The notes under the pieces are model-generated. The model was not told where the DNA came from. It was given only the letters and a program-made list of their open reading frames with translations, and made no database searches. The position numbers and the translations under genes are program-made. Shown one piece after another: positions 3,009-17,512 of a DNA stretch of 64,000 bases; the first letter of the stretch is position 1; every line of letters starts with the position of its first letter. The DNA is from a phage, in the sequence record PX969468.1; one strand, given 5' to 3'.

Positions 3009-3770
3009 TCAATCCTTAACACAAGGTCTTGGATAGCCTCTGGATAACTTCCACTCAGTTAGTGACATCTCTCCGTAGAGACAGTTTACTTCCCAAGACT
3101 TTCTTGCACAAACTGCCTCCCACCACGGATTTAGCCACTTCCTGTCGTTGAAGCACCTTAAGTTTCTTCCTTTGTTATCTCGTGCCCTCCAACAGGTATC
3201 TTTCTTAGACCAATCAATACCGGGCAGGATATTATTCTTGTGCGGGTTTGGAACTATCTTTAAAGCCTCTTCCGGGTTGGCTATCGACCATTCAATCCTA
3301 GATTTAGCCTCTTCGAAAGTGTCAAAATCTCCCAACCTAACATTTACCCTATTTATCCTTCTACTTGCCCTCCACTTACCCTCTCTTTTCAGCCATACCA
3401 CACCAGTCACTGTAGAGGTATTATTGCTTTGTACATTTTCCAAGGCTCTCTTACAGTAGTTATCCCATGGCTTCAACATTTGAAGGTTTTCTATCTTGTC
3501 TACAGGCACTCCGTTAGTAGAATTTTTCTTAGATACGATATGATCGATATGCCAAGTATCTGTGACACATCCGTAAAACATGTCAAAAATTTCCCTATGT
3601 CTGCCACGTTTAACATTTGTCAGCTTATTGTACACTTGGAAATATCCAGTCTTTTTGTTGTAGTGTCCAGCCCTATTTCCATTCCTACTGTAGCCAGGTT
3701 TCCAAAAGATTAGATCACCATCCTTGTACCAATAAGGGTAATGATCATTAAAAAAGAAATGTATCTTCAT
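3009..3770 (-). CDS. HNH homing endonuclease with AP2-like DNA-binding domain
   Basis: 253 codons; H-I-D-H...N HNH core followed by segment GVVWLKREGKWRASRRINRVNVRLGDFDTFEEA typical of AP2 domains fused to phage HNH endonucleases. Confidence 0.6.
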   Translation of the reverse strand: MKIHFFFNDHYPYWYKDGDLIFWKPGYSRNGNRAGHYNKKTGYFQVYNKLTNVKRGRHREIFDMFYGCVTDTWHIDHIVSKKNSTNGVPVDKIENLQMLKPWDNYCKRALENVQSNNTSTVTGVVWLKREGKWRASRRINRVNVRLGDFDTFEEAKSRIEWSIANPEEALKIVPNPHKNNILPGIDWSKKDTCWRARDNKGRNLRCFNDRKWLNPWWEAVCARKSWEVNCLYGEMSLTEWKLSRGYPRPCVKD

Positions 3771-4464: not shown

Positions 4465-5748
4465 TTATTCCAGCACCTCCCAAGTGTCTGGGTTAACATT
4501 TCGGACGCAGATACCGACAGGGAATTGGTAGTTATTGTCTTCTGTCCTTGCTTGATATTTGAAGGTGACAAACTTGCCGATCATTTCCTGCATTCTGTCA
4601 TAGCTACGCTCCTCGTGCGTACCTTTCATCTTCATTTTAACAACAATACCTTCCTTGTCAACACAGATAAGAACACCTTCATCATTCTTATCTTTCTCAA
4701 CGTCAATAACTTTCACCTCTGCGTCGTTGAACTTTTTCCATTTCAATGCTTCAGATGTTCGCTGACCGTACTCGTATTTACCGCAGAAATTACGCATGAT
4801 AGTACCTTCATATCCTTCGGACATGAATATACCAACAGATTCTTCGCAATGATCAACTGTGTACGCAAGCTCTGCGTCAACAACCTTGATATGGTCAAGC
4901 ATCAGAGTGGTAACGGTATCCTCTGCATCCATAAGATCCTTGCAGCGTCCAGACTCTGTTTCTGGATCCCACCACACCTTGTCGCTAGGAATATCAAAAA
5001 TGTGATACTCCAGATCGTAGCTACAGTACCCACCGTAACGCAAATCATCACGAACAGGCTCAACATCGACAGGAATATCTACCTTGTTGAAGTTTTTGTA
5101 TGTTGATAAGCCTGCCTTAATTGCGGCATGACGGCGTTTTTTATCTGCCTCATAGTCTTTATCGATCTCGGCCTGAATCTCTTCCTGTGTGCGCCACCGT
5201 TTAGCAAGAGACACTATTTTCTGCAAAGGAAGACCATGAATGTATAGTTCCCCATCAAGTTGTTTAATCCCAGTGGTAGAATGGAAAGAACGAAGTTGCT
5301 CTAAAAGCTTTCCTTGAATAGGGTAGGACTTATTACCACGGGAAATAAATTTAGGCTCACCGTTTTGGAAAACAACTAGTAGACGAAGGCCATCTAACTT
5401 ACGCAAGATCCAGCAAGGTAATTTAAGTGCCTTTCCACGCTTCAGGTAGTCATGCACCAGCATGGGTAAAAGGTCAACACCCTGCTCGCAATCTTCCATA
5501 TTTTCAACATACCCCAGACGGACTTGTTTTTCCCACTTACTGATCGCTTCCAGCTCAGCCTGTTGCTCAGCTGTAGTTTCATTGGCACGACCCACGTTCT
5601 TAGGTGTGCAGATCGTCTCTTTGTATTGCAGTTTACCATCAAGCTTGCCAAACTCTACGATAACCTTATCACCATCCGTGAATACTTTCCACTGTTGGTA
5701 GCTGCCATCTTTATTCAGTGCGTACAGTGTTGTTTTGATTTGATGCAT
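4465..5748 (-). CDS. ATP-dependent DNA ligase
   Basis: 427 codons; adenylation motif K-L-D-G (KxDG) in RKLDGLRLLVV plus downstream ligase-like motifs. Confidence 0.65.
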   Translation of the reverse strand: MHQIKTTLYALNKDGSYQQWKVFTDGDKVIVEFGKLDGKLQYKETICTPKNVGRANETTAEQQAELEAISKWEKQVRLGYVENMEDCEQGVDLLPMLVHDYLKRGKALKLPCWILRKLDGLRLLVVFQNGEPKFISRGNKSYPIQGKLLEQLRSFHSTTGIKQLDGELYIHGLPLQKIVSLAKRWRTQEEIQAEIDKDYEADKKRRHAAIKAGLSTYKNFNKVDIPVDVEPVRDDLRYGGYCSYDLEYHIFDIPSDKVWWDPETESGRCKDLMDAEDTVTTLMLDHIKVVDAELAYTVDHCEESVGIFMSEGYEGTIMRNFCGKYEYGQRTSEALKWKKFNDAEVKVIDVEKDKNDEGVLICVDKEGIVVKMKMKGTHEERSYDRMQEMIGKFVTFKYQARTEDNNYQFPVGICVRNVNPDTWEVLE

Positions 5749-6017
5749 TACTCGGCCTCTTCCTTAAAAATTTTAAACATCTCTTCTTTACTCATTACCA
5801 ACCAGTCTCCCATAAAGTCAACTAACCAATCTCCCTGGTACAAGACTAGGTTACCAAACGGCTCTACAAGCTCACACATGCGACGAAGATCTCTGGTCCG
5901 AACAGGTGACGATGTAAACACACCTGTATCAATCCACCGTTGCAGATCAGATACTGATGAAGAGCTTCCGTCAAACTGGTGTGCTTCTACAGGTTTAGCA
6001 AGATTAAATAACGGCAT
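5748..6017 (-). CDS. hypothetical protein
   Basis: 89-codon ORF tightly packed between neighbours. Confidence 0.35.
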   Translation of the reverse strand: MPLFNLAKPVEAHQFDGSSSSVSDLQRWIDTGVFTSSPVRTRDLRRMCELVEPFGNLVLYQGDWLVDFMGDWLVMSKEEMFKIFKEEAE

Positions 6018-6312
6018 TACAGTCCTCCTTATCTAATAGGTCTTTTATCGGGTAAACAAGCAGGTGTGGATCGTAATAATTTATAGTTTTATTCTGCCAC
6101 ACTATGAACTTAATTACAACTAAATTTACCACATCTTTATCTCCATGTAGTCCAACACACAGATTTGTCCATATTTTGTGGTTGAATACTTTGCTGTCGA
6201 TGTAGATCTTAGTGTCAAACTTATCCTCTATCCTGCCTATGAGTTTAACCAACTCTTTCATCTGATCCCCAAACACAGCATCGTTTTCAAGATCTCTAGA
6301 GTGCTTGTACAT
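6004..6312 (-). CDS. hypothetical protein
   Basis: 102-codon ORF; AGGTAG-type RBS upstream of start on minus strand. Confidence 0.4.
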   Translation of the reverse strand: MYKHSRDLENDAVFGDQMKELVKLIGRIEDKFDTKIYIDSKVFNHKIWTNLCVGLHGDKDVVNLVVIKFIVWQNKTINYYDPHLLVYPIKDLLDKEDCNAVI

Positions 6313-6339
6313 AACTTTCTACCTCACTTGCATACTTTC

Positions 6340-6370
6340 CTAAACAAGTAAAGCCGGGATCGCCCCGGCT
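6340..6370 (-). terminator. rho-independent terminator-like hairpin after the MazG-like gene
   Basis: stem GCCGGG/CCCGGC with 5-nt loop followed on the minus strand by T-rich tract. Confidence 0.4.
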
Positions 6371-6376
6371 ATGTTA

Positions 6377-7090
6377 TTAAATATATTCTGTTACATCCTT
6401 GAAGCTTGAAGGCTTCATAATCTTACCTTTACTGTCGAGGAATATGATAACTTTATTTCCGTTGTAGAATTCTTCTTTAGCAACAAAACCTTCATAGCGA
6501 CCATCAAAGCGTCGCTCAAGATCTTTAATCTCCAACTCGATGAGTTGTTCAACAGGCATATCTGCACTGGCACCGTGTGAATACCGCAGATGGTTGACGC
6601 GTGCAAACTTGCTGTCATTAGATTTTAGAACCTTCCGCATCATCCCGCACACATCACCGCGAAGCTGGAACAGCAAAGCTGTTGACAACTCTGCTAAGCG
6701 GTAAGCAGACGCTCTTTGCTTAGAGGTATTTTTCGCAGCGATCAGTGTATCATAAAATTCACCGATCTTAAACTTAAGACCTCGCGGATTATCAAACAGG
6801 TTTGACCACTTTTCATGGTTATCGTTAACAAGATAAGCGGCATAACTTGTGACAACATGAAGATCGCAGGCCTCTTTTAGGAGATGATCCCCACCATCAC
6901 CTTTCTCCAACTCTTCCAAAACCTCATTGAACTCTTCCTCAATGAAACTCAGCTGAAGTTCGAATGGTGTGTATGATTTTTTCACTTTAGCTGCTACACG
7001 GTTCCAGTTTTCCACCCAGTTGGCAGACCAAAGGTAGTTTTCAGGCTGGGACAGTTTTTCCAGGTTGTCGATCAGTTTAGTATTCAGCAT
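6377..7090 (-). CDS. MazG-like nucleotide pyrophosphohydrolase domain protein (tentative)
   Basis: 237 codons; segment EEEFNEVLEELEKGDGGDHLLKEACDLHVV matches the E-x2-E...E-x-x-D acidic helix pattern of MazG-type enzymes. Confidence 0.4.
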   Translation of the reverse strand: MLNTKLIDNLEKLSQPENYLWSANWVENWNRVAAKVKKSYTPFELQLSFIEEEFNEVLEELEKGDGGDHLLKEACDLHVVTSYAAYLVNDNHEKWSNLFDNPRGLKFKIGEFYDTLIAAKNTSKQRASAYRLAELSTALLFQLRGDVCGMMRKVLKSNDSKFARVNHLRYSHGASADMPVEQLIELEIKDLERRFDGRYEGFVAKEEFYNGNKVIIFLDSKGKIMKPSSFKDVTEYI

Positions 7091-7104
7091 TAAAAGGCCT
7101 CCGC

Positions 7105-7866
7105 TTACAGTTCCATAAAGTTTTCTACGATGTCAATAAATGTTTTATCAGAGAAAGCGTCAACCGCCCCGTTAAACCAAACTGGGATGCCGCGATCCTC
7201 ATATTGATAAAGGTCGCTACGTGAAATGCCGCTTCCATCTGCACTCTGCGAATCATACTTGTTTACAATCAGTAGTTTTGTGCCTTTACAAGTAGCAGGA
7301 AACAATTCCCAGTTAAAATTAATAACTGTGTTAGAACAACCCACCAGAATCACCATATCATTGCTGGTAAGAGATGTCAATAGGTCATACATGTCTGTAT
7401 ACTTAGGAGCAACCTCACCGAAGAACACCACATTGGGCTTAACCCAAGTATACTTGCCTGTATCTACCTCCGTGTATCCGATATTTTTAATTACATCATT
7501 ACCTTCAGCATCTTCGTAGGTGATTTCAGGCAAATACCCGTGGACATGTAAGATATCTTCATGTTTAACACCAGCACGCTCCAGCAAATCATCTATATTG
7601 GTTGTCAGGTTGATCACACGACCAGACCAACGTGAATACCACTCAGCGATCCGGAGATGTGCAAGGTTAGGATCAACACTGCCCAGAGCTACACGCCGTG
7701 CATTGTAAAAGTCATGCACCTTATAGTAGTTCTTGGCAAAGGTGTGGATGTTACACACCTCATCGATGCTGAAATTCTCCCACATTGCAGTTTGACCAGA
7801 ACGAAAAGTTGGGATCCCAGATTCTGCGCTCAAGCCAGCACCAGAAATAACAATAAGTCGTCGCAT
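7105..7866 (-). CDS. Sir2-family (sirtuin-like) NAD-dependent enzyme
   Basis: 253 codons; GAGLSAESGIPTFR, TTNIDDL, HVHG and VKPNVVFFGE motifs in canonical order; no Cys4 zinc ribbon evident. Confidence 0.65.
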   Translation of the reverse strand: MRRLIVISGAGLSAESGIPTFRSGQTAMWENFSIDEVCNIHTFAKNYYKVHDFYNARRVALGSVDPNLAHLRIAEWYSRWSGRVINLTTNIDDLLERAGVKHEDILHVHGYLPEITYEDAEGNDVIKNIGYTEVDTGKYTWVKPNVVFFGEVAPKYTDMYDLLTSLTSNDMVILVGCSNTVINFNWELFPATCKGTKLLIVNKYDSQSADGSGISRSDLYQYEDRGIPVWFNGAVDAFSDKTFIDIVENFMEL

Positions 7867-7874
7867 AAATGTCC

Positions 7875-8225
7875 TTAGTAGATGTTTTGGTTGATCTCTA
7901 TTCCAAACTTCTTGAATGAGTCAGCAGCAAGCATAAATTTACGAGCCGCTGATGGGTTAGAAGTATGCACGAAAATCTTCACGTTGTCAACTACAGGAGG
8001 CTTACCAAATACAAATTTTTCCTCCAACATAGATAGGCAATCGTACCCTTCAAATACCTCTCCAAGATCGTTGTCCATGTGCCACTCAGAAACGCGCCTG
8101 TAGAGCTTTCCCTTATCGTTAATAAAATCCATAAACTCAGAGGAATTCTTTAGCCAAATAGCATCGGGGATCCCATAATTTGACGGATCTCTCAAGTCAT
8201 CCAGCCACACGATCAACTTCTTCAT
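7875..8225 (-). CDS. hypothetical protein, possible receiver-like (flavodoxin-fold) domain
   Basis: 116 codons; alternating hydrophobic strand/acidic loop pattern (LIVWLDD...SEWHMDND...KIFVHTSNP); assignment is pattern-based only. Confidence 0.3.
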   Translation of the reverse strand: MKKLIVWLDDLRDPSNYGIPDAIWLKNSSEFMDFINDKGKLYRRVSEWHMDNDLGEVFEGYDCLSMLEEKFVFGKPPVVDNVKIFVHTSNPSAARKFMLAADSFKKFGIEINQNIY

Positions 8226-9157
8226 TGCATATAGTCCTCGTTGTGGAAATAGCAGTCAAGTATCTCACGGCGTTCCTGCTCTAGGAGGCAGTTCCACACA
8301 TCTTCTGTGTAATTGTTACGAATGAAGTTTACCATGCCGTAAAACTCTTCGTCAATACGTTTAAAGATATCATCATCCCAAATCTTCCAAGCTTTACCCC
8401 TCATTACGGCCTTCCGTGCCAAATAGTATGGAGACTTGATCTTCAGCTGCAGATCATAAGGGTAGTAAGGCTTACGAATCATATACCCTTCACCTCTTGT
8501 TTCTGCAGCTAATTCTTTTGCATAGCTGAACGGAATTTCACGCACAGTGTGAGGACGTTTTGCACCAAGGTATTTGGCAATCCCATCTAAAGCTGCTTCT
8601 GGTAGCATTATTCCAGAATCATTATATCTGCAACCTATCAAATATGCGCCATGATCTTCCTGAACAATATGCGGATCTGAAGGGTGACAAATTTCAAACA
8701 TGAATGTCATGTTTTCATGGCCCATAACCTTCTTGATAAGATCTAAATTACCACATTGCTCCTGGATGGTTTCCTTTGCAAGGTTACAATATGGAGAATC
8801 AAGAGACCCGGTTGTTGAAAACAATAGTTCACCTTTATGAGATGATACCACACCAAGGAATCCGTTCTTTTTCTCTACCGCCGTCACAAGTTTATTGTCA
8901 GGCAGGTTGGTGGAGTTTTCTCCCAAATTAAACACTTTTGTGAAGGGCCATGCCACAACATTTCCTTCATTACCGACAACAATGCCTCGGCACTCTAGTA
9001 AACGCGGAGACAAATGCCATAAATTGTTGTAGAATACTTTTCTGGCATATTTGTAGATCTTTAATCCAAGATCTGGGTAATATCTGCTGGTTACAAGACC
9101 TTTGTCAACCAGGTCGTCTGCATTAAAATACTTCATCATACATTCCTCATTTGTCAT
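8222..9157 (-). CDS. RNA ligase-type covalent nucleotidyltransferase
   Basis: 311 codons; motif I K-x-N-G (EKKNGF), motif IV-like GEGYMIRKP, motif V-like LKIKSPYY; distinct from the DNA ligase at 4465..5748. Confidence 0.55.
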   Translation of the reverse strand: MTNEECMMKYFNADDLVDKGLVTSRYYPDLGLKIYKYARKVFYNNLWHLSPRLLECRGIVVGNEGNVVAWPFTKVFNLGENSTNLPDNKLVTAVEKKNGFLGVVSSHKGELLFSTTGSLDSPYCNLAKETIQEQCGNLDLIKKVMGHENMTFMFEICHPSDPHIVQEDHGAYLIGCRYNDSGIMLPEAALDGIAKYLGAKRPHTVREIPFSYAKELAAETRGEGYMIRKPYYPYDLQLKIKSPYYLARKAVMRGKAWKIWDDDIFKRIDEEFYGMVNFIRNNYTEDVWNCLLEQERREILDCYFHNEDYMQ

Positions 9158-9200
9158 TTTGTCCCTTTATTCTGCCACACAAATAACCTGGTGTCAACAC

Positions 9201-9229
9201 TTGAAATTAACAAAACAGTTAGGTATACT
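9201..9229 (+). promoter_or_regulatory. sigma70-like promoter (TTGAAA-17-TATACT) for the kinase operon
   Basis: hexamers and 17-nt spacer read directly in the divergent intergenic region. Confidence 0.45.
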
Positions 9230-9257
9230 CTCATTAAAATTAAAACGGAGAGTTACT

Positions 9258-9668
9258 ATGTCTAAAATGCTATATATCGTGCGTGGTCTACCAGGGTCTG
9301 GCAAATCAACACTGGCAAATGCGCTATCTTTAGAAGGTCTGTATCCACATTTTGAGAACGATATGTTCTGGTACGACGATGACGGCAATTACAATTGGGA
9401 TGCAAGTAAAGTAACACTTGCAGCAAAATGGTGCAAAGATAACGTAGAAGATATGATGCGTATGGGCTACGACCGTATCGTGGTAAGTAATACGTTTACA
9501 AAAGAAAAATATGTGCAAGAATATATTGACATGGCGATCAGTCATGGATATAGTTATACCGTGATCGTGGTTGAAAACCGCCATGGTAATAAAAGCATTC
9601 ATGATGTTCCAGACAGGGTTGTGGATCGTATGGAACGCCAGCTTAAAAACTGCATTAAACTTAAATGA
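9258..9668 (+). CDS. P-loop kinase, polynucleotide kinase-like
   Basis: 136 codons; Walker A GLPGSGKST near N-terminus; GGAG RBS 7 nt upstream; the track ORF starts upstream but the Met at 9258 has the RBS. Confidence 0.55.
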   Translation: MSKMLYIVRGLPGSGKSTLANALSLEGLYPHFENDMFWYDDDGNYNWDASKVTLAAKWCKDNVEDMMRMGYDRIVVSNTFTKEKYVQEYIDMAISHGYSYTVIVVENRHGNKSIHDVPDRVVDRMERQLKNCIKLK

Positions 9669-9675
9669 GGAATGT

Positions 9676-10230
9676 ATGAAATACTTTGTAACAAGCGACA
9701 CACACTTTCTCCACCAGCGGGTAATGGAGTTCGACTCATGTCAAAAACACAGATCTCAGTATGATCACAATCTTGACAGTATGAATGCGGGAATCATCAC
9801 CAAGTGGAACTCTGTTGTGTCACCTGCAGACACTGTGTTTCACTTGGGGGATATTGCGTGCACTAATGATAAGAATATCAACAAATTGCTTCCAGATGTT
9901 CTAAATATGTTGAACGGACATATTATTCTTGTTCGTGGTAACCATGACACAAGGACGACTGTCAGAATTATGAAAGAGTTCGGTCATGAGGTTGTAGATT
10001 ATTACGAGCTTCGCCACAACAAGAATTTGATCTGTATGAGCCATTACCAGTTTGCAAAGTGGAACAGAAAGCCTCACGGATCAGTCCAACTGTTCGGTCA
10101 TGCTCACGGAACCACACAGCAGTTGTTTGGCAGGCAGTTTGATGTCGGTTGGGATGTGTGGGGGAGACTCTTACCATTAGAAGAGGCATACCGTATTGCA
10201 ATGAGTCTTGCTATTGACAGCGGGGAGTAA
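9676..10230 (+). CDS. calcineurin-like metallophosphoesterase
   Basis: 184 codons; SDTHF, GDI, GNHD and GHAH motifs in canonical order. Confidence 0.6.
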   Translation: MKYFVTSDTHFLHQRVMEFDSCQKHRSQYDHNLDSMNAGIITKWNSVVSPADTVFHLGDIACTNDKNINKLLPDVLNMLNGHIILVRGNHDTRTTVRIMKEFGHEVVDYYELRHNKNLICMSHYQFAKWNRKPHGSVQLFGHAHGTTQQLFGRQFDVGWDVWGRLLPLEEAYRIAMSLAIDSGE

Positions 10231-10277
10231 TCCCTGCTATTTTAAAGAAAATTGCCACACAAGGAGAATCAGGAGAT

Positions 10278-10628
10278 ATGAAAGATGAGGATAAGCTGCT
10301 ATATCTTAAAGTCCCCCTTGAAATACTGTCTATGTCAAAAGTTTTGAATGGCACAACTGGGGAGGTTGTTGTTCTTGACTTATATGACAAGATCGTATAC
10401 TGCTACCTGCACAACTGGTATAAGCTTGGAGAAAATTCACGCTTCACACCCAGCACCAGGAAAATTGCAGCAGATGTTGGGATAAAGAAAACAAAAGCAG
10501 CAGCGTGCGTTAAAACTTTAGAATGTGCAGGAGTGGTTGAAATATCCACACAAGGGAGAGGTAAAAGATGCACATTTTCCAAAGTTTTGCCACCAGAAGA
10601 AGTTATTCGAATGTCAACAACTGGTTAG
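10278..10628 (+). CDS. putative DNA-binding protein (winged-helix/HTH-like)
   Basis: 116 codons; segment TRKIAADVGIKKTKAAACVKTLECAGVVEI has helix-turn-helix character; GGAG RBS. Confidence 0.35.
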   Translation: MKDEDKLLYLKVPLEILSMSKVLNGTTGEVVVLDLYDKIVYCYLHNWYKLGENSRFTPSTRKIAADVGIKKTKAAACVKTLECAGVVEISTQGRGKRCTFSKVLPPEEVIRMSTTG

Positions 10629-13166: not shown

Positions 13167-13241
13167 GCCCTGTTAGCTTAGTGGATAAAGCAGCGGCCTT
13201 CTAAGCCGTTGACACTGGTTCGAGTCCAGTACGGGGTGCCA
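13167..13241 (+). tRNA. tRNA-Arg (anticodon TCT)
   Basis: hand-folded cloverleaf: acceptor GCCCTGT/ACGGGGT (two G-U), D-arm GCTT/AAGC, anticodon loop CTTCTAA, T-arm ACTGG-TTCGAGT-CCAGT, encoded CCA. Confidence 0.6.
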
Positions 13242-13635: not shown

Positions 13636-13735
13636 GCTAGGTAAGCCCTTTGGCAAGGGCGAGGATTTTTAATCCTGAAAATAGACGAGGTAGTCGTTGA
13701 ATACATAGGTGGTTCGATTCCATCACCTAGCACCT
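13636..13735 (+). pseudogene. atypical tRNA-like element (Lys-TTT-like 5' half, ~30-nt insert, no encoded CCA)
   Basis: perfect 7-bp acceptor GCTAGGT/ACCTAGC, D-arm GCCC/GGGC, anticodon-like loop TTTTTAA, T-arm GGTGG-TTCGATT-CCATC, but about 30 nt between anticodon arm and T-arm and CCT instead of CCA. Confidence 0.3.
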
Positions 13736-13815: not shown

Positions 13816-13890
13816 GGCCCTGTAGCTGGAAGGTTCAAGCAAGCGACTCATAATCGCCAGACGGTGGTTCAATTCCACCCAGGGCCACCA
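13816..13890 (+). tRNA. tRNA-Met or Ile2 (anticodon CAT)
   Basis: perfect acceptor GGCCCTG/CAGGGCC, anticodon loop CTCATAA, T-arm GGTGG-TTCAATT-CCACC, encoded CCA. Confidence 0.6.
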
Positions 13891-14798: not shown

Positions 14799-15082
14799 GA
14801 GTTACTGCACTGGTTGTTTTGTGCTTGTTATTGTGTGGGTGTGCAACCAGCGTTGAGAGAGAATACAAGATTGACCCTCCGGATGTAGGAAGGTTGATTG
14901 TTAAACCTCCCGAGGGTGCTATGAAACCACCTGCTAAAGCTATCCCTTTGAAGAAAGGTGCGCCAGATGCGGTGAATTCTGGCATTATGAGGGATAATAA
15001 CCTGTCTTGTAGTAATGATAGAGCTAAATTGATCATTTTGCAAGACTATATAAGAACACTGTTTCCAAAGGAGAGAGGTTAA
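14795..15082 (+). CDS. o-spanin (Rz1-like outer-membrane lipoprotein)
   Basis: 95 codons; signal peptide with lipobox L-C-G-C, proline-rich mature part. Confidence 0.6.
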   Translation: MRVTALVVLCLLLCGCATSVEREYKIDPPDVGRLIVKPPEGAMKPPAKAIPLKKGAPDAVNSGIMRDNNLSCSNDRAKLIILQDYIRTLFPKERG

Positions 15083-15507
15083 TGTCTAAGATTTACGGAC
15101 CGTGTTCTGAAAAGCAGAAGATGATCCTAGAGAACGATGCAGATATTTTGGTGATCGGAGGTGCAGCTGGGTCTGGAAAGTCGTTCCTCTTGCAGCTAAT
15201 GCCACTTAAAATTATTGATGACCCACACAGCTCTGTGGTTATGTTCCGAAGAACAACTCCACAGTTGGAAGGTGAGGGTGGGCTATGGCCTAAAGCAGTA
15301 GCTATTTACAGTGATCTGCCTGAAAACATTAAACCAAAGTTCAGAGAGAAGGATCATAAGTTTATTTTTCCACGGTTTGATCCGAGCACTGGCAAGTGGG
15401 ACAGGAGCAAAAAAGGGGCCGTTGTAAAATACTGCCACATGGAGTATGTCCAAGATAAGCTTAACCATCAAGGCCTTGAGTACACCATGGTTTGCTTCGA
15501 TGAGGGT
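15082..15507 (+). CDS. terminase large subunit, exon 1 (ATPase domain)
   Basis: Walker A GGAAGSGKS and Walker B VCFDEG; reading frame stops at TAA immediately after DEG. Confidence 0.65.
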
Positions 15508-16390
15508 TAATTTGTAGCTCTCGTAAAACCTCCCTAATTGCGGGGAAATCTTTATTATTGACACCACCAACCTGTTATGGTAACATGATAGAGGCTTCGA
15601 AGAGAGATCGAAGGTATGGTAACAGTGTGTTGATTTAGATAATCCGCAGCGAAGCATCCGAGAGGATGAACGTTCAACGACTAGTCGAAAGACGTAGAAT
15701 CAAGCGATTCGAAACGGGAGGGTGAATGTGTAATACTAAAAAATGTATGGATTGCCAAAGAGTTCTACCTCTTGATGATTTCTTTTTATCATCTAAGAGC
15801 CAGGATGGATACTCAGGTACATGCAAGGAATGCTATATGTACTACAGGAAGAATGGATCTCGTAGAAACAAAAATATGGTTAAGAGAGATGATGCAGCAT
15901 CTTTTATTCAAGACTTACTGAAGAAAGGTGAGCTTTTTGAATGTAAATCTTGTCATGAAAGTATGCTTGCTGATAGTTTTTACACAAAACGCGACTATGG
16001 TAAAGTGTATCTAGTCACGAACAGGTGTAAGATGTGTGAAAAGTTTTATCAGATTGAGAAGAAATTTCACATAACAAAAGATGAATACTATCGTCTACTC
16101 TCAGATCAAGATCATAAGTGTGCAATCTGTAGAATATCTCTTGATGAGTATAAGACTCAAGGATATAGAGATTTCTTTTGTGTTGATCATGACCATAAAA
16201 CTGGTGCTGTAAGAGGGTTGCTTTGTGATAAATGCAACAGGGCTTTAGGTTTCTTCCAAGAGGATGAGGAAACCATTCTTAGAGCGGCAGAGTATTTACA
16301 CATTCATAAGATATAGTCTGGTCTGCATGGAGACATGCAGCTGCCTGAAAATGGCGGGGCAAGACTAGCGACCTTGCCCGAACATAAACG
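15508..16390 (+). mobile_element. group I-like intron carrying an HNH endonuclease gene, inserted in the terminase large-subunit gene
   Basis: P/Q/R-like core elements AATTGCGGGGA (15536..15546), AATCCGCAGC (15641..15650), GTTCAACGACTAG (15672..15684); possible guide GCTCTC (15517..15522) pairing with exon end GAGGGT; ends in G; 3' boundary could be 16387 or 16390. Confidence 0.55.
15726..16316 (+). CDS. HNH homing endonuclease (intron-encoded)
   Basis: 196 codons; GGGAGGG RBS; several CxxC pairs and HNH core CVDHDHKTGAVRGLLCDKCNRALG. Confidence 0.7.
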   Translation: MCNTKKCMDCQRVLPLDDFFLSSKSQDGYSGTCKECYMYYRKNGSRRNKNMVKRDDAASFIQDLLKKGELFECKSCHESMLADSFYTKRDYGKVYLVTNRCKMCEKFYQIEKKFHITKDEYYRLLSDQDHKCAICRISLDEYKTQGYRDFFCVDHDHKTGAVRGLLCDKCNRALGFFQEDEETILRAAEYLHIHKI

Positions 16391-17512
16391 ACGCAATTCG
16401 AATGGGAGCAGATAGACTATTTGATGTCTCGTCTGCGATCTCAGTCAAAGTATCCATCAAGAATGGTTATCAGCTGTAACCCCGACTCAGAACACATGCT
16501 TGCCAAACTGGTTAGGTGGTGGTTGGACGATGAAGGGTATCCAGATCCGGAGAAATGCGGTAAGAAAAGATATTTTATCCGACGCGACGGGGAATTTATC
16601 TGGGGAGATTCTAAAGAAGAGTTGATAGAGAAATACACCACGGTTAACGGACTTGGCGTAGAGATCAAGCCAAGACCGTTGTCATTCTCGTTCATAGGCG
16701 CAACAATATTCGATAATCCTGTCTGTTTGAGAGACAACCCAGAATACCTTGCTTTCCTCGAAGGTCTACCAGAGCTGGAAAAAGCTCAGCTTCTCCATGG
16801 TAACTGGTTTGCAAAGCCTGAGGGTGCAAACTATTTTCAAAGATCTTTCCTTCGTGATGCCGATAGAGTACCTCTTGGGTCAGTATCTTGCAGGGCATGG
16901 GATAAGGCAGGAACCGAGAGAACTTCCGGTAATAAATTTCCTGACTTTACTGCCAGTATTAAGGTAAGTAAAGATAGCGACGGATTTTATTACCTGTCCG
17001 GTGATTATTGTCCTGAGAACGTGGATGACGGGAGGTATTCCACAGGTCTGGAAGGCAAGTTCTGTAAAAAGGCTGGTGAACGAGATGTGATCATCAGGAA
17101 ACAGGCGCAGTTCGATGGTGATGATTGCATAATCGTCTTCTCTGTGGACCCAGGGCAGGCAGGTAAGAGTGAGTTCTTAACCTCCTCCAGATCCTTGCTT
17201 GCCGAAGGGTTCAGGGTTGAAGAAGACCCAATGCCTTCCAACAAGTCTAAACTGACAAGGTTCTCACCTTTTGCCAATCTTGCCCAACAAGGAATGGTGA
17301 GGATTGTAAAATCCAGTTTCCATCCTGATACTCTGGAAGCATTTCTGACTGAACTTGAAAAATTCAACGGGGAAAGATCAACATTTAACAGAAAAGACGA
17401 CTGGGCCGACTGCGTAGCTTCTGCGATTAATTTCCTGGAGAAAGAGGAGGTAGCACTTCCTTGTGTGATTCCATCAATCTCATCACCTTCTATGTTCAAG
17501 CGTTTTATCTAA
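16391..17512 (+). CDS. terminase large subunit, exon 2 (nuclease domain)
   Basis: in-frame continuation TQFEWEQIDYLMSRLRS without convincing start/RBS; joins exon 1 as ...VCFDEG|TQFEW... Confidence 0.55.
   Translation, partial: TQFEWEQIDYLMSRLRSQSKYPSRMVISCNPDSEHMLAKLVRWWLDDEGYPDPEKCGKKRYFIRRDGEFIWGDSKEELIEKYTTVNGLGVEIKPRPLSFSFIGATIFDNPVCLRDNPEYLAFLEGLPELEKAQLLHGNWFAKPEGANYFQRSFLRDADRVPLGSVSCRAWDKAGTERTSGNKFPDFTASIKVSKDSDGFYYLSGDYCPENVDDGRYSTGLEGKFCKKAGERDVIIRKQAQFDGDDCIIVFSVDPGQAGKSEFLTSSRSLLAEGFRVEEDPMPSNKSKLTRFSPFANLAQQGMVRIVKSSFHPDTLEAFLTELEKFNGERSTFNRKDDWADCVASAINFLEKEEVALPCVIPSISSPSMFKRFI

Follow-up and report, generated by a model that had tools for sequence, protein, structure and literature searches.

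The 64,000-nt stretch of phage DNA in sequence record PX969468.1 (henceforth referred to as 'the window', with positions counted from its first nucleotide) contains a cluster of predicted RNA-repair genes, the core of which occupies positions 8222-10230. Three open reading frames (ORFs) make up this core, each lying exactly where the initial annotation of the window had put it: on the minus strand, a gene for a predicted ATP-dependent RNA ligase (8222..9157; 311 aa), in which an adenylyltransferase domain of the T4 Rnl1/Trl1 type is joined to a short helical C-terminal module of its own; and, on the plus strand, genes for a P-loop kinase of the polynucleotide-kinase-like (AAA_33) group, predicted to act on RNA 5'-OH ends (9258..9668; 136 aa), and for a binuclear metallophosphoesterase of the aq_1665 (PDB 1xm7) family, predicted to heal 2',3'-cyclic-phosphate/3'-phosphate ends (9676..10230; 184 aa). 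Over the 2.9 kb around the cluster, identity to more than 100 phage genomes in the databases is 96-99%; nearly all of these are from Escherichia phages of the genus Vequintavirus (rV5-like), to which the phage of the window also belongs, and the layout of the BASEL phage MaxBurger (Bas54) is collinear with that of the window. The labels deposited for the three genes are "RNA ligase", "3'-phosphatase, 5'-polynucleotide kinase" or "AAA family ATPase", and "phosphoesterase", respectively. As an RNA-repair cluster the locus is not new: GenBank records carry annotations for its genes, and for the same group of phages the neighbourhood has been published as a computational prediction of RNA repair (Iyer, Burroughs, Anantharaman & Aravind 2022, Viruses 14:1977; PMC9503650).

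The ligase and kinase genes diverge from a spacer (9158..9257) which, in agreement with the promoter region of about 100 bp initially annotated between them, is 100 bp long and holds one sigma-70-like match on each strand, placed back-to-back, together with the ribosome-binding site of the kinase gene. On the minus strand TTGACA (9197-9192) is paired with a CAGAAT that ends at 9169 and is accompanied by TG, and on the plus strand TTGAAA (9201) is paired with a TATACT ending at 9229; both sites agree with the consensus at 10 of 12 positions and, by consensus match alone, the hexamer pairs would count as promoter-like. Leftwards from the spacer run, tightly spaced, the ligase gene (the first of its operon) and then the genes for a cREC protein, a sirtuin (Sir2) and a MazG-like protein; rightwards, the kinase and phosphoesterase genes form the head of a second block that starts from the same spacer. 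Since the spacer is also the point at which the GC skew of the window flips sign and leftward genes yield to rightward ones, the divergent layout reflects genome architecture as much as co-regulation: it is the border between two transcription blocks and is not special to the ligase, kinase and phosphoesterase genes. Translational coupling is seen in both the ligase-cREC and the kinase-phosphoesterase pairs. The start codon of the cREC gene overlaps the ligase stop codon (ATGA), and the kinase gene, which starts with the ATG at 9258 behind a GGAGAG ribosome-binding site and ends with the TGA at 9666-9668, is followed by a phosphoesterase gene whose ATG at 9676 is served by a GAGGA ribosome-binding site overlapping that stop codon.

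The true start of the ligase is probably the ATG at 9139 (M7), which gives a protein of 305 aa. This ATG is preceded by GAGGA inside the 16-nt string AATGAGGAATGTATGA, which holds both the ribosome-binding site and the ATG and of which the window contains exactly two copies, one at 9136-9151 (minus strand) at the seventh codon of the ligase and the other at 9664-9679 (plus strand) at the start of the phosphoesterase. No such exact repeat is expected by chance (0 of 100 shuffles), and both proteins, when the ligase is read from M7, open with M(M)KYF. We assign the start to M7 because of this repeat, the low confidence with which residues 1-7 of the ligase are modelled (predicted local distance difference test score (pLDDT) <50) and the annotation of MaxBurger, which has the 305-aa form. 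The repeat is possibly a translational signal shared by the two genes.

The ligase matches the Pfam family RNA_lig_T4_1 (E 8.3e-15) over residues 55-245, with the whole of the 227-position model covered, and displays nucleotidyltransferase motifs I (K96-K-N98-G99), III (E155), IV (E223-G224-YMIR) and V (K239-I-K241). Conservation of catalytic and metal-binding residues was judged from homologues aligned for each protein (36 for the ligase, 41 for the kinase and 46 for the phosphoesterase), reaching down to ~30-45% identity. Among the 36 ligase homologues (~45% identity), K96, N98, G99, E155, E223, G224, K239 and K241 are invariant, which bears out the initial description of a minus-strand RNA ligase-type nucleotidyltransferase with KxNG, EGYMIR and KxK motifs. 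Searches of the PDB with the single ligase and kinase sequences returned nothing useful, and profiles were needed. With the ligase profile, T4 Rnl1 was the sole match below E = 1 among all PDB sequences (E 2.6e-13), and no match to the ligase domain of Trl1 (Trl1-LIG) was obtained at E up to 10; hhalign aligned residues 50-247 with full-length T4 Rnl1 at a probability of 97.7%. In this correspondence K96-x-N-G99, E155, E223-G224 and K239-x-K241 pair with T4 K99-G102, E159, E227-G228 and K240-K242, and nine T4 Rnl1 residues (R54, K75, K99, G102, E159, E227, G228, K240 and K242) have invariant counterparts in the ligase family. These include R54 and K75, the ATP gamma-phosphate contacts of the Rnl1-type N-terminal sub-module of the adenylyltransferase domain, which is present in the ligase; the position of T4 Rnl1 K119 is taken by Thr116. 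When scored against known enzymes, the ligase came closest to T4 Rnl1 (24.2, with 261 residues aligned), followed by fungal Trl1-LIG (21.0-21.7), the Rnl3 enzymes and a related Aquifex ligase (15.7-16.9), Rnl5 (14.3) and Rnl2 (12.6); DNA ligases reached at most 9.9, capping enzymes at most 8.2 and the ligase domain of bacterial Pnkp 8.1. By this ranking the protein falls into neither a DNA-ligase nor a capping-enzyme clade.

It is by the C-terminal module that RNA ligases are divided into clades, and the T4 Rnl1-specific C-terminal domain both defines the Rnl1 clade and confers tRNA specificity (PMC6379707, PMC11404444). The C-terminal ~65 residues of the window ligase, which are helical, gave no alignment with either the 120-aa tRNA-specificity domain of T4 Rnl1 or the C-domain of Trl1, and against the TIGR02308 equivalog model the ligase scored 39 bits, the cut-off being 242. 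Because the C-terminal module is unaligned and the TIGR02308 score lies below the cut-off, we describe the protein as Rnl1-like in its catalytic domain and not as a strict member of the Rnl1 family. The ligase family is nearly absent from cells: a scan with stringent search patterns of 185,579 species genomes, one genome per species, returned 5 matches, four of them on contigs of metagenome-assembled genomes, and the family is thus essentially viral.

The kinase matches Pfam AAA_33 (E 2.7e-10) and PHROG 505 'polynucleotide kinase' (E 3.1e-10), and its Walker A motif reads G10-LP-G13-S-G15-K16-S-T18, with K16 and D35 invariant and S17 nearly so (at least 90%) among the 41 homologues. The best solved relative of the kinase profile was the stand-alone tRNA-splicing RNA 5'-OH kinase of Mucorales (9d8a; E 8.9e-7), followed by the P-loop protein 9drz, Pnkp1 of the Pnkp1-Rnl-Hen1 complex, T4 Pnk, seryl-tRNA(Sec) kinase (PSTK) and Clostridium thermocellum Pnk (the PDB entries matched include 9d8a, 4xrp, 1ly1/1ltq and 4gp7). 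Nucleotide kinases scored worse: the best adenylate kinase (E 1.4e-4) was matched over the N-terminal P-loop stretch only, and the remaining nucleotide and sugar kinases gave E values of 0.005 or worse. With the kinase domain of T4 Pnk, hhalign returned a probability of 96.5% (E 9.5e-10; 127 columns), pairing K16/S17, D35 and the invariant R108 with T4 Pnk K15/S16, the general base D35 and R122; in the Mucorales enzyme the essential Asp is Asp36 (PMC11571804). The best relatives of the Walker A protein being polynucleotide 5'-kinases, its initial description as Pnk-like is sound: homology to the polynucleotide kinases is solid, and membership of a nucleotide-kinase family is not favoured. The acceptor itself is not readable from sequence alone, and the kinase-ligase fusions described below argue for polynucleotide specificity.

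The phosphoesterase matches Pfam Metallophos_2 (PF12850; E 1.7e-6) and Metallophos (PF00149; E 4.1e-6), both above the gathering thresholds. All four metal-binding motifs that had led to its being called calcineurin-like (SDTHF, GDI, GNHD and GHAH) are present, and the motifs of the superfamily (DxH, GD, GNH(D/E), H and GHxH) are invariant in the 46 homologues, as seen for D8, H10, D59, N89, H90, H123, H142 and H144. Its profile has a single strong solved relative, Aquifex aq_1665 (1xm7), which is matched over the full length at E 5.1e-28; weaker matches are to GpdQ, YfcE, MJ0936, Rv0805 and the nuclease MPE. The AlphaFold2 model (pLDDT 93.7) agrees with 1xm7 at a TM of 0.67, and the top Foldseek matches of the model are 1xm7 and the phosphodiesterase MJ0936. 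Neither a lambda-phosphatase nor a Pnkp phosphatase was found with the phosphoesterase profile at E up to 0.1, and PPP-type phosphatases appeared in the Foldseek search only at E above 0.1. The protein is therefore an aq_1665-family member of the calcineurin-like binuclear superfamily that stands outside the lambda-phosphatase/CthPnkp clade. The proposal in the initial annotation that a metallophosphoesterase serves here as the end-healer is accordingly a fair functional analogy to bacterial Pnkp, one that does not extend to membership of the same clade.

To place the three genes in a wider context, we compared 80 IMG/VR loci that encode ligase homologues 36-89% identical to the query. By tblastn, 63 of the 80 loci had a kinase homologue and 61 a phosphoesterase homologue, compared with 10 for cREC and 11 for the sirtuin, and iterated hidden Markov model searches gave the same counts for the latter two; a relaxed search added two divergent cREC-like proteins (in the distant locus L071 and in L064), which brings cREC to 12 of 80 loci with the gene beside a ligase homologue. 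Ligases were then collapsed at 70% identity and loci kept if they had flanks of 2.5 kb or more in each direction, giving 29 lineages. A kinase lay within 3 kb of the ligase in 23 of these, a phosphoesterase in 25, both in 21 and neither in 2, whereas cREC and the sirtuin, counted within 5 kb, accompanied the ligase in only 3/29 and 4/29 lineages, respectively. These lineage counts indicate that ligase, kinase and phosphoesterase are an evolutionarily stable core, to which sirtuin and cREC are lineage-specific additions. The usual gene order is co-directional, either phosphoesterase-ligase-kinase or kinase-ligase-phosphoesterase, so that adjacency is kept though the order varies, and the divergent ligase/kinase layout is confined to the closest relatives of the window. 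Some of the loci that have no kinase homologue carry another AAA_33 kinase. In 11 loci (L037, L040, L042-L044, L047, L048 and L050-L053), kinase and ligase form a single ORF in which the small kinase is N-terminal to the RNA ligase; complete copies measure 421-432 aa, that of L053 being truncated where its contig ends; three of these ORFs were read and contain both sets of motifs. By the classic fusion argument, proteins fused in relatives are likely to share a pathway and, together with the conserved adjacency in divergent phages, the fusions strongly support a predicted functional coupling of ligase, kinase and phosphoesterase.

The fusions and the adjacency also bear on a different reading of the locus, which is that kinase and phosphoesterase process DNA ends with the nearby DNA ligase, or degrade immune nucleotide messengers, and that the ligase has the tail-fibre role of T4 gp63. 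The window does contain an ATP-dependent DNA ligase gene (4465-5748), and a DNA ligase gene is found in the flanks of 25 related loci; weak matches of the phosphoesterase include the 'ligase-associated DNA damage response endonuclease' PdeM, at E 2.4e-4, and the nuclease MPE 6nvo, at E 0.01; databases call the ligase 'tail fiber attachment catalyst'; and cREC, Sir2, Macro and NAMPT neighbours would fit NAD and signal metabolism as well. However, the ligase to which the kinase is fused is an RNA ligase, not a DNA ligase, and it is the RNA ligase that the phosphoesterase typically adjoins directly. The tail-fibre label was carried over from T4, and the invariance of all catalytic residues of the ligase is not required for a purely structural chaperone, nor does the gene lie among tail genes but among early-type nucleotide-metabolism genes. 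Since fusions, RNA-ligase adjacency and invariant catalytic residues argue against each part of this reading, we regard it as extremely unlikely.

A scan for families among the 256 neighbouring ORFs, limited to recurrent clusters, showed that ligase homologues are repeatedly accompanied by HD_4, lambda-phosphatase-like (cluster c30, in few loci), Macro, NAMPT and PRPP-synthetase genes. An HD_4 phosphohydrolase of ~165 aa often directly adjoins the phosphoesterase-ligase pair (17 loci; examples, in cluster c5, are L011, L018, L019, L023, L063, L074 and L080), and within 5 kb NAMPT-like genes were found in 27 loci and PRPP-synthetase genes in 31 (clusters c3/c4; examples are L015, L031 and L042). 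This recurrence suggests a broader RNA-repair/NAD-salvage island.

In the window itself the three-gene triad of the initial annotation is real, but the module is larger, with the ligase operon adding three more genes. The first encodes the cREC (cyclic-phosphate-processing receiver) protein (7875..8225, minus strand; 116 aa), which matches Pfam PF20274 cREC_REC at E 2.2e-14 (54.3 bits; cut-off 27) and in which the motifs WLDDLRD and HMDNDLG, kept in its relatives, are visible. The cREC domain was defined in a 2021 jumbo-phage paper (PMC7824862) by the authors of the 2022 study, and processing of cyclic phosphates is the role predicted for it in both papers (PMC7824862, PMC9503650). The second gene starts 8 nt downstream and encodes a sirtuin without the CxxC zinc-ribbon cysteines (7105..7866, minus strand; 253 aa; Pfam SIR2, E 3.4e-28; PHROG 2162), which has been predicted to be an NAD-dependent remover of 2'-phosphates (PMC9503650). 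The last gene of the leftward operon encodes a MazG-like nucleotide pyrophosphohydrolase (6377..7090, minus strand; 237 aa) that matches PHROG 671 'nucleotide pyrophosphohydrolase' at E 5.5e-22 and has no Pfam match. Directly after it lies a terminator-like hairpin, the GC-rich palindrome AGCCGGGGCGATCCCGGCT (6352-6370), which scores on both strands and is plausibly the end of the ligase operon. No Hen1 methyltransferase was found among the eight proteins of 4465-10628 scanned in Pfam, the ORFs of 5748-6312 having been compared with PHROGs only. With PADLOC, none of the ligase, phosphoesterase, cREC and MazG-like proteins was assigned to a defence system, the kinase drew only weak P-loop matches and Sir2 one insignificant match; the idea that the cluster is itself a phage-borne defence system was therefore dropped.

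The sirtuin and cREC genes bring into view a chemistry of the fungal/plant type. Here the phosphoesterase and/or cREC would work solely as cyclic phosphodiesterases and leave 3'-OH,2'-PO4 ends, which the ligase would need as Trl1 does, the sirtuin, acting as a Tpt1/KptA analogue, would use NAD+ to strip the 2'-phosphate from the junction, and MazG and cREC would clear the by-products. The idea of a sirtuin acting like KptA has been put forward for the V5-type neighbourhood (PMC9503650), motif I of the ligase is KxNG as in Trl1-LIG (PMC6379707) where T4 has KEDG, and Foldseek places Trl1-LIG level with T4 Rnl1 as a match for the ligase model. In addition, the ligase family has an invariant His163, 8 residues past the motif III Glu155, and invariant Lys249 and Arg253, 8 and 12 residues past the motif V Lys241; T4 Rnl1 has Ile at the position of His163 and no Arg at +12, and the fungal His-Arg-Arg triad, which imposes the 2'-PO4 requirement, lies 9 residues past the motif III Glu and just past motif V (PMC11404444). 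The spacings are, however, off by one residue, and the correspondence with the triad, drawn from motif spacing alone, would be a guess. Furthermore, the core mostly occurs in lineages without a nearby sirtuin or cREC gene, and in those that are sirtuin-free a 2'-PO4-dependent ligase would have to rely on a Tpt1/KptA of the host. We consider chemistry of this type rather unlikely. Its most far-reaching form is distinctly unlikely: the rV5-type ligase would found a clade of its own (neither Rnl1 nor Rnl6) that demands a 2'-phosphate, with His163/Lys249/Arg253 mimicking the fungal His-Arg-Arg and the 65-aa helical C-terminal module being unique to it, within a complete fungal/plant-style pathway that would proceed from a cyclic phosphodiesterase through the kinase and the 2'-PO4-dependent ligase to NAD-dependent 2'-dephosphorylation, the zinc-less sirtuin replacing Tpt1/KptA. 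If true, such an enzymatic activity would be new for sirtuins.

The tRNA cluster of the phage, seven genes in all, begins at 13167, 2.9 kb past the phosphoesterase stop codon. The initial annotation had remarked on the position of the triad beside the tRNA genes, and the distance of about 3 kb to the right is correct, but the closeness is not conserved: of 40 related loci scanned, 16 have a tRNA gene within ~8 kb (a count made without a background control) and the other 24 have none within the flanks covered. Proximity to tRNA genes is thus not a conserved property of ligase loci, and we give the 3-kb distance no weight. The tRNAs of the phage, including an atypical tRNA-Lys(UUU) of 97-99 nt, would be candidate substrates if the cluster served the RNA metabolism of the phage itself, through maturation of tRNAs or transcripts, splicing, circularisation or the mending of collateral damage by phage RNases, and Trl1-type enzymes do splice in eukaryotes (PMC6379707). 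Against such a role, the extra 26 nt of the odd tRNA fold as an arm at the variable position and not at the canonical intron site, more than half of the scanned loci have no tRNA gene in their flanks, and the sole characterised phage precedent, T4, is one of counter-defence. Together with the arguments from fusion, adjacency and catalytic residues given above, these points make a role in the phage's own RNA metabolism highly unlikely.

Several further features of the tRNA genes and of the window were observed. The atypical tRNA (13636-13734, plus strand) has the anticodon loop UUUUUAA, which identifies it as tRNA-Lys(UUU), and is miscalled by ARAGORN as having a 4-base anticodon. Its 26-nt insert at the variable-arm position folds as an extra 5-bp stem-loop, a class-II-like shape that is unusual for Lys; it scores 35.5 bits with the Rfam tRNA model, has a fold z-score of -3.7 and is 97% conserved in two rV5-like relatives, so that covariation is uninformative. 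As tRNA-Lys(UUU) is the target of PrrC, the odd tRNA may be a nuclease-resistant replacement. A second tRNA, with anticodon CAU (13816-13890, plus strand), is called Met by ARAGORN and tRNA-Ile (ATA codon) in the MaxBurger annotation, a reading that would imply lysidine modification. Among the uncultivated phages, tmRNA genes lie within 8 kb of the ligase homologue in three loci (L047, L050 and L065), and apparent stop-codon suppressor tRNAs are found within the same distance, with anticodon CUA in L058, L065 and L073 and UUA in L060. Elsewhere in the window the large terminase is seemingly split (15082-17512, plus strand) into two ORFs, the N-terminal one with a Walker A motif (15082-15510) and the C-terminal one at 16421-17512, and between them lies a 196-aa ORF (15726-16316) with a CVDHDH...CDKCN motif that by eye resembles homing endonucleases of the endonuclease VII/HNH type; the split could be an intron or homing-endonuclease insertion. 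A 253-aa ORF at 3009-3770 (minus strand), in which W-x-A-R/W-R-A segments are repeated and an H-x-D-H motif (HIDHIV) occurs, resembles by eye homing endonucleases of the HNH/AP2 type, and in its place MaxBurger has a shorter 'putative homing endonuclease'.

Taken together, we consider it likely, with a probability of roughly 0.65, that with this cluster the phage encodes an RNA repair module of the heal-and-seal type, which counters host immunity that cleaves RNA, and especially tRNA. The 136-aa kinase would phosphorylate 5'-OH ends, as suggested by its homology, its retained catalytic Asp35 and the ligase fusion in relatives. The metallophosphoesterase, given its intact active site, would open and/or remove the cyclic or terminal phosphate, with cREC probably acting alongside it in rV5-like phages, and the Rnl1-type ligase would self-adenylylate on K96, activate the 5'-phosphate and seal the break. 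The sirtuin and MazG-like protein may be lineage-specific accessories that handle 2'-phosphate and NAD-derived by-products, as suggested by Iyer et al. (PMC9503650). The pay-off for the phage would be escape from RNA-cleaving, especially tRNA-cleaving, immunity of the host.

A number of observations weigh against this reading. The ligase has no detectable C-terminal tRNA-specificity domain of the T4 Rnl1 type, so that tRNA is no more than a putative substrate. Of the T4 Pnk residues R38, D85, R122 and R126, which Wang and Shuman reportedly found to be among the essential acceptor-site and lid residues, R38 is replaced in the kinase by W38 (Phe or Trp across the family) and D85 by an invariant N78, and R126 falls on K112, a variable position. 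The nearest solved relative of the phosphoesterase, 1xm7, is a protein without known function, and its other relatives are generic phosphodiesterases or nucleases (MJ0936, GpdQ, YfcE, Mre11 and, weakly, PdeM/MPE). Many tRNA-targeting defences use metal-dependent nucleases or excise nucleotides, damage that heal-and-seal chemistry cannot mend. Finally, our literature searches on RNA repair in rV5 and the Vequintavirinae returned no experimental study and no reported activity, substrate or phenotype.

Defences that cleave tRNA are numerous and include PrrC, RloC, PARIS, retron-Septu, Cas13, Cas12a3, OLD and HepS (2026 OLD preprint). The ligase-kinase-metallophosphoesterase core is widespread in uncultivated phages and also occurs in the tractable BASEL coliphages (Bas54/MaxBurger) and, because these are genetically tractable, the rV5-type cluster offers a practical second model of viral RNA repair. 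To our knowledge, T4 Pnkp/Rnl1 is the only phage repair answer to tRNA cleavage that is understood experimentally. The rV5-type cluster could equally serve as a test bed for the published idea of the sirtuin as an RNA 2'-phosphotransferase.

In phage T4, Pnkp (pseT) and Rnl1 (rnlA) repair tRNA and so counter the anticodon nuclease PrrC. The rV5-type cluster appears to follow the same plan, in which a kinase acts on the 5' end, the 3' end is healed and the break is sealed: its ligase has the Rnl1 adenylyltransferase domain with the N-terminal sub-module and the nine catalytic residues, its kinase is homologous to the kinase domain of T4 Pnk, and in T4 too the genes rnlA and pseT are linked, being ~1.4 kb apart. 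In contrast to T4, where 3' healing is carried out by a HAD/DxDxT phosphatase, a separate binuclear metallophosphoesterase (plus cREC) is predicted to do so here; the 120-aa tRNA-specificity domain of T4 Rnl1 is replaced by the unalignable ~65-aa C-terminal module; K119 of T4 Rnl1 has become Thr116; and the counterparts of T4 Pnk R38 and D85 are missing from the kinase.

The bacterial Pnkp-Hen1 (Clostridium thermocellum) and Pnkp1-Rnl-Hen1 systems likewise combine a P-loop polynucleotide kinase, a 2',3'-phosphatase of the metallophosphoesterase superfamily and an ATP-dependent RNA ligase, and the kinase profile matches both Pnkp1 and CthPnk. The bacterial enzyme is, however, one polypeptide where the window has separate proteins, the window phosphoesterase is of the aq_1665/MJ0936 type and not the lambda-phosphatase type, and the eight Pfam-scanned genes at 4465-10628 include no Hen1. 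With fungal/plant Trl1 (LIG-KIN-CPD) and Tpt1 the cluster shares a ligase fold that matches Trl1-LIG almost as well as T4 Rnl1, a KxNG motif I, the occurrence of kinase-ligase fusions in relatives of the window and the NAD-using 2'-phosphate step proposed for the V5-type neighbourhood (PMC9503650). The kinase's best solved relative also belongs here, being the stand-alone tRNA-splicing RNA kinase of Mucorales (PMC11571804). In contrast to Trl1, the window system has no 2H-type CPD domain, the order of domains is kinase-ligase in the fusions of its relatives where Trl1 has ligase-kinase, and there is no sequence-level match of the ligase to Trl1.

The closest description is that of Iyer and colleagues (PMC9503650). 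Their type 2 sirtuin-centred neighbourhood, for which Escherichia phage V5 and Proteus phage Mydo are named as prototypes, is a predicted RNA-repair system that depends on NAD, and it comprises a sirtuin, a T4-like tRNA ligase, cREC, a MazG-like enzyme, a nucleotide kinase and, as an 'occasional' member, a calcineurin-like phosphoesterase. This is the same locus in the same phage group as the window, where all six components are contiguous (6377-10230), and both that description and the present account are computational. In contrast to a system that is centred on the sirtuin and in which the phosphoesterase is occasional, our survey finds that kinase and phosphoesterase are the constant partners of the ligase and that sirtuin and cREC occur in few lineages. 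That ligase, kinase and phosphoesterase form the conserved core is the new finding, and it refines the published sirtuin-centred description.

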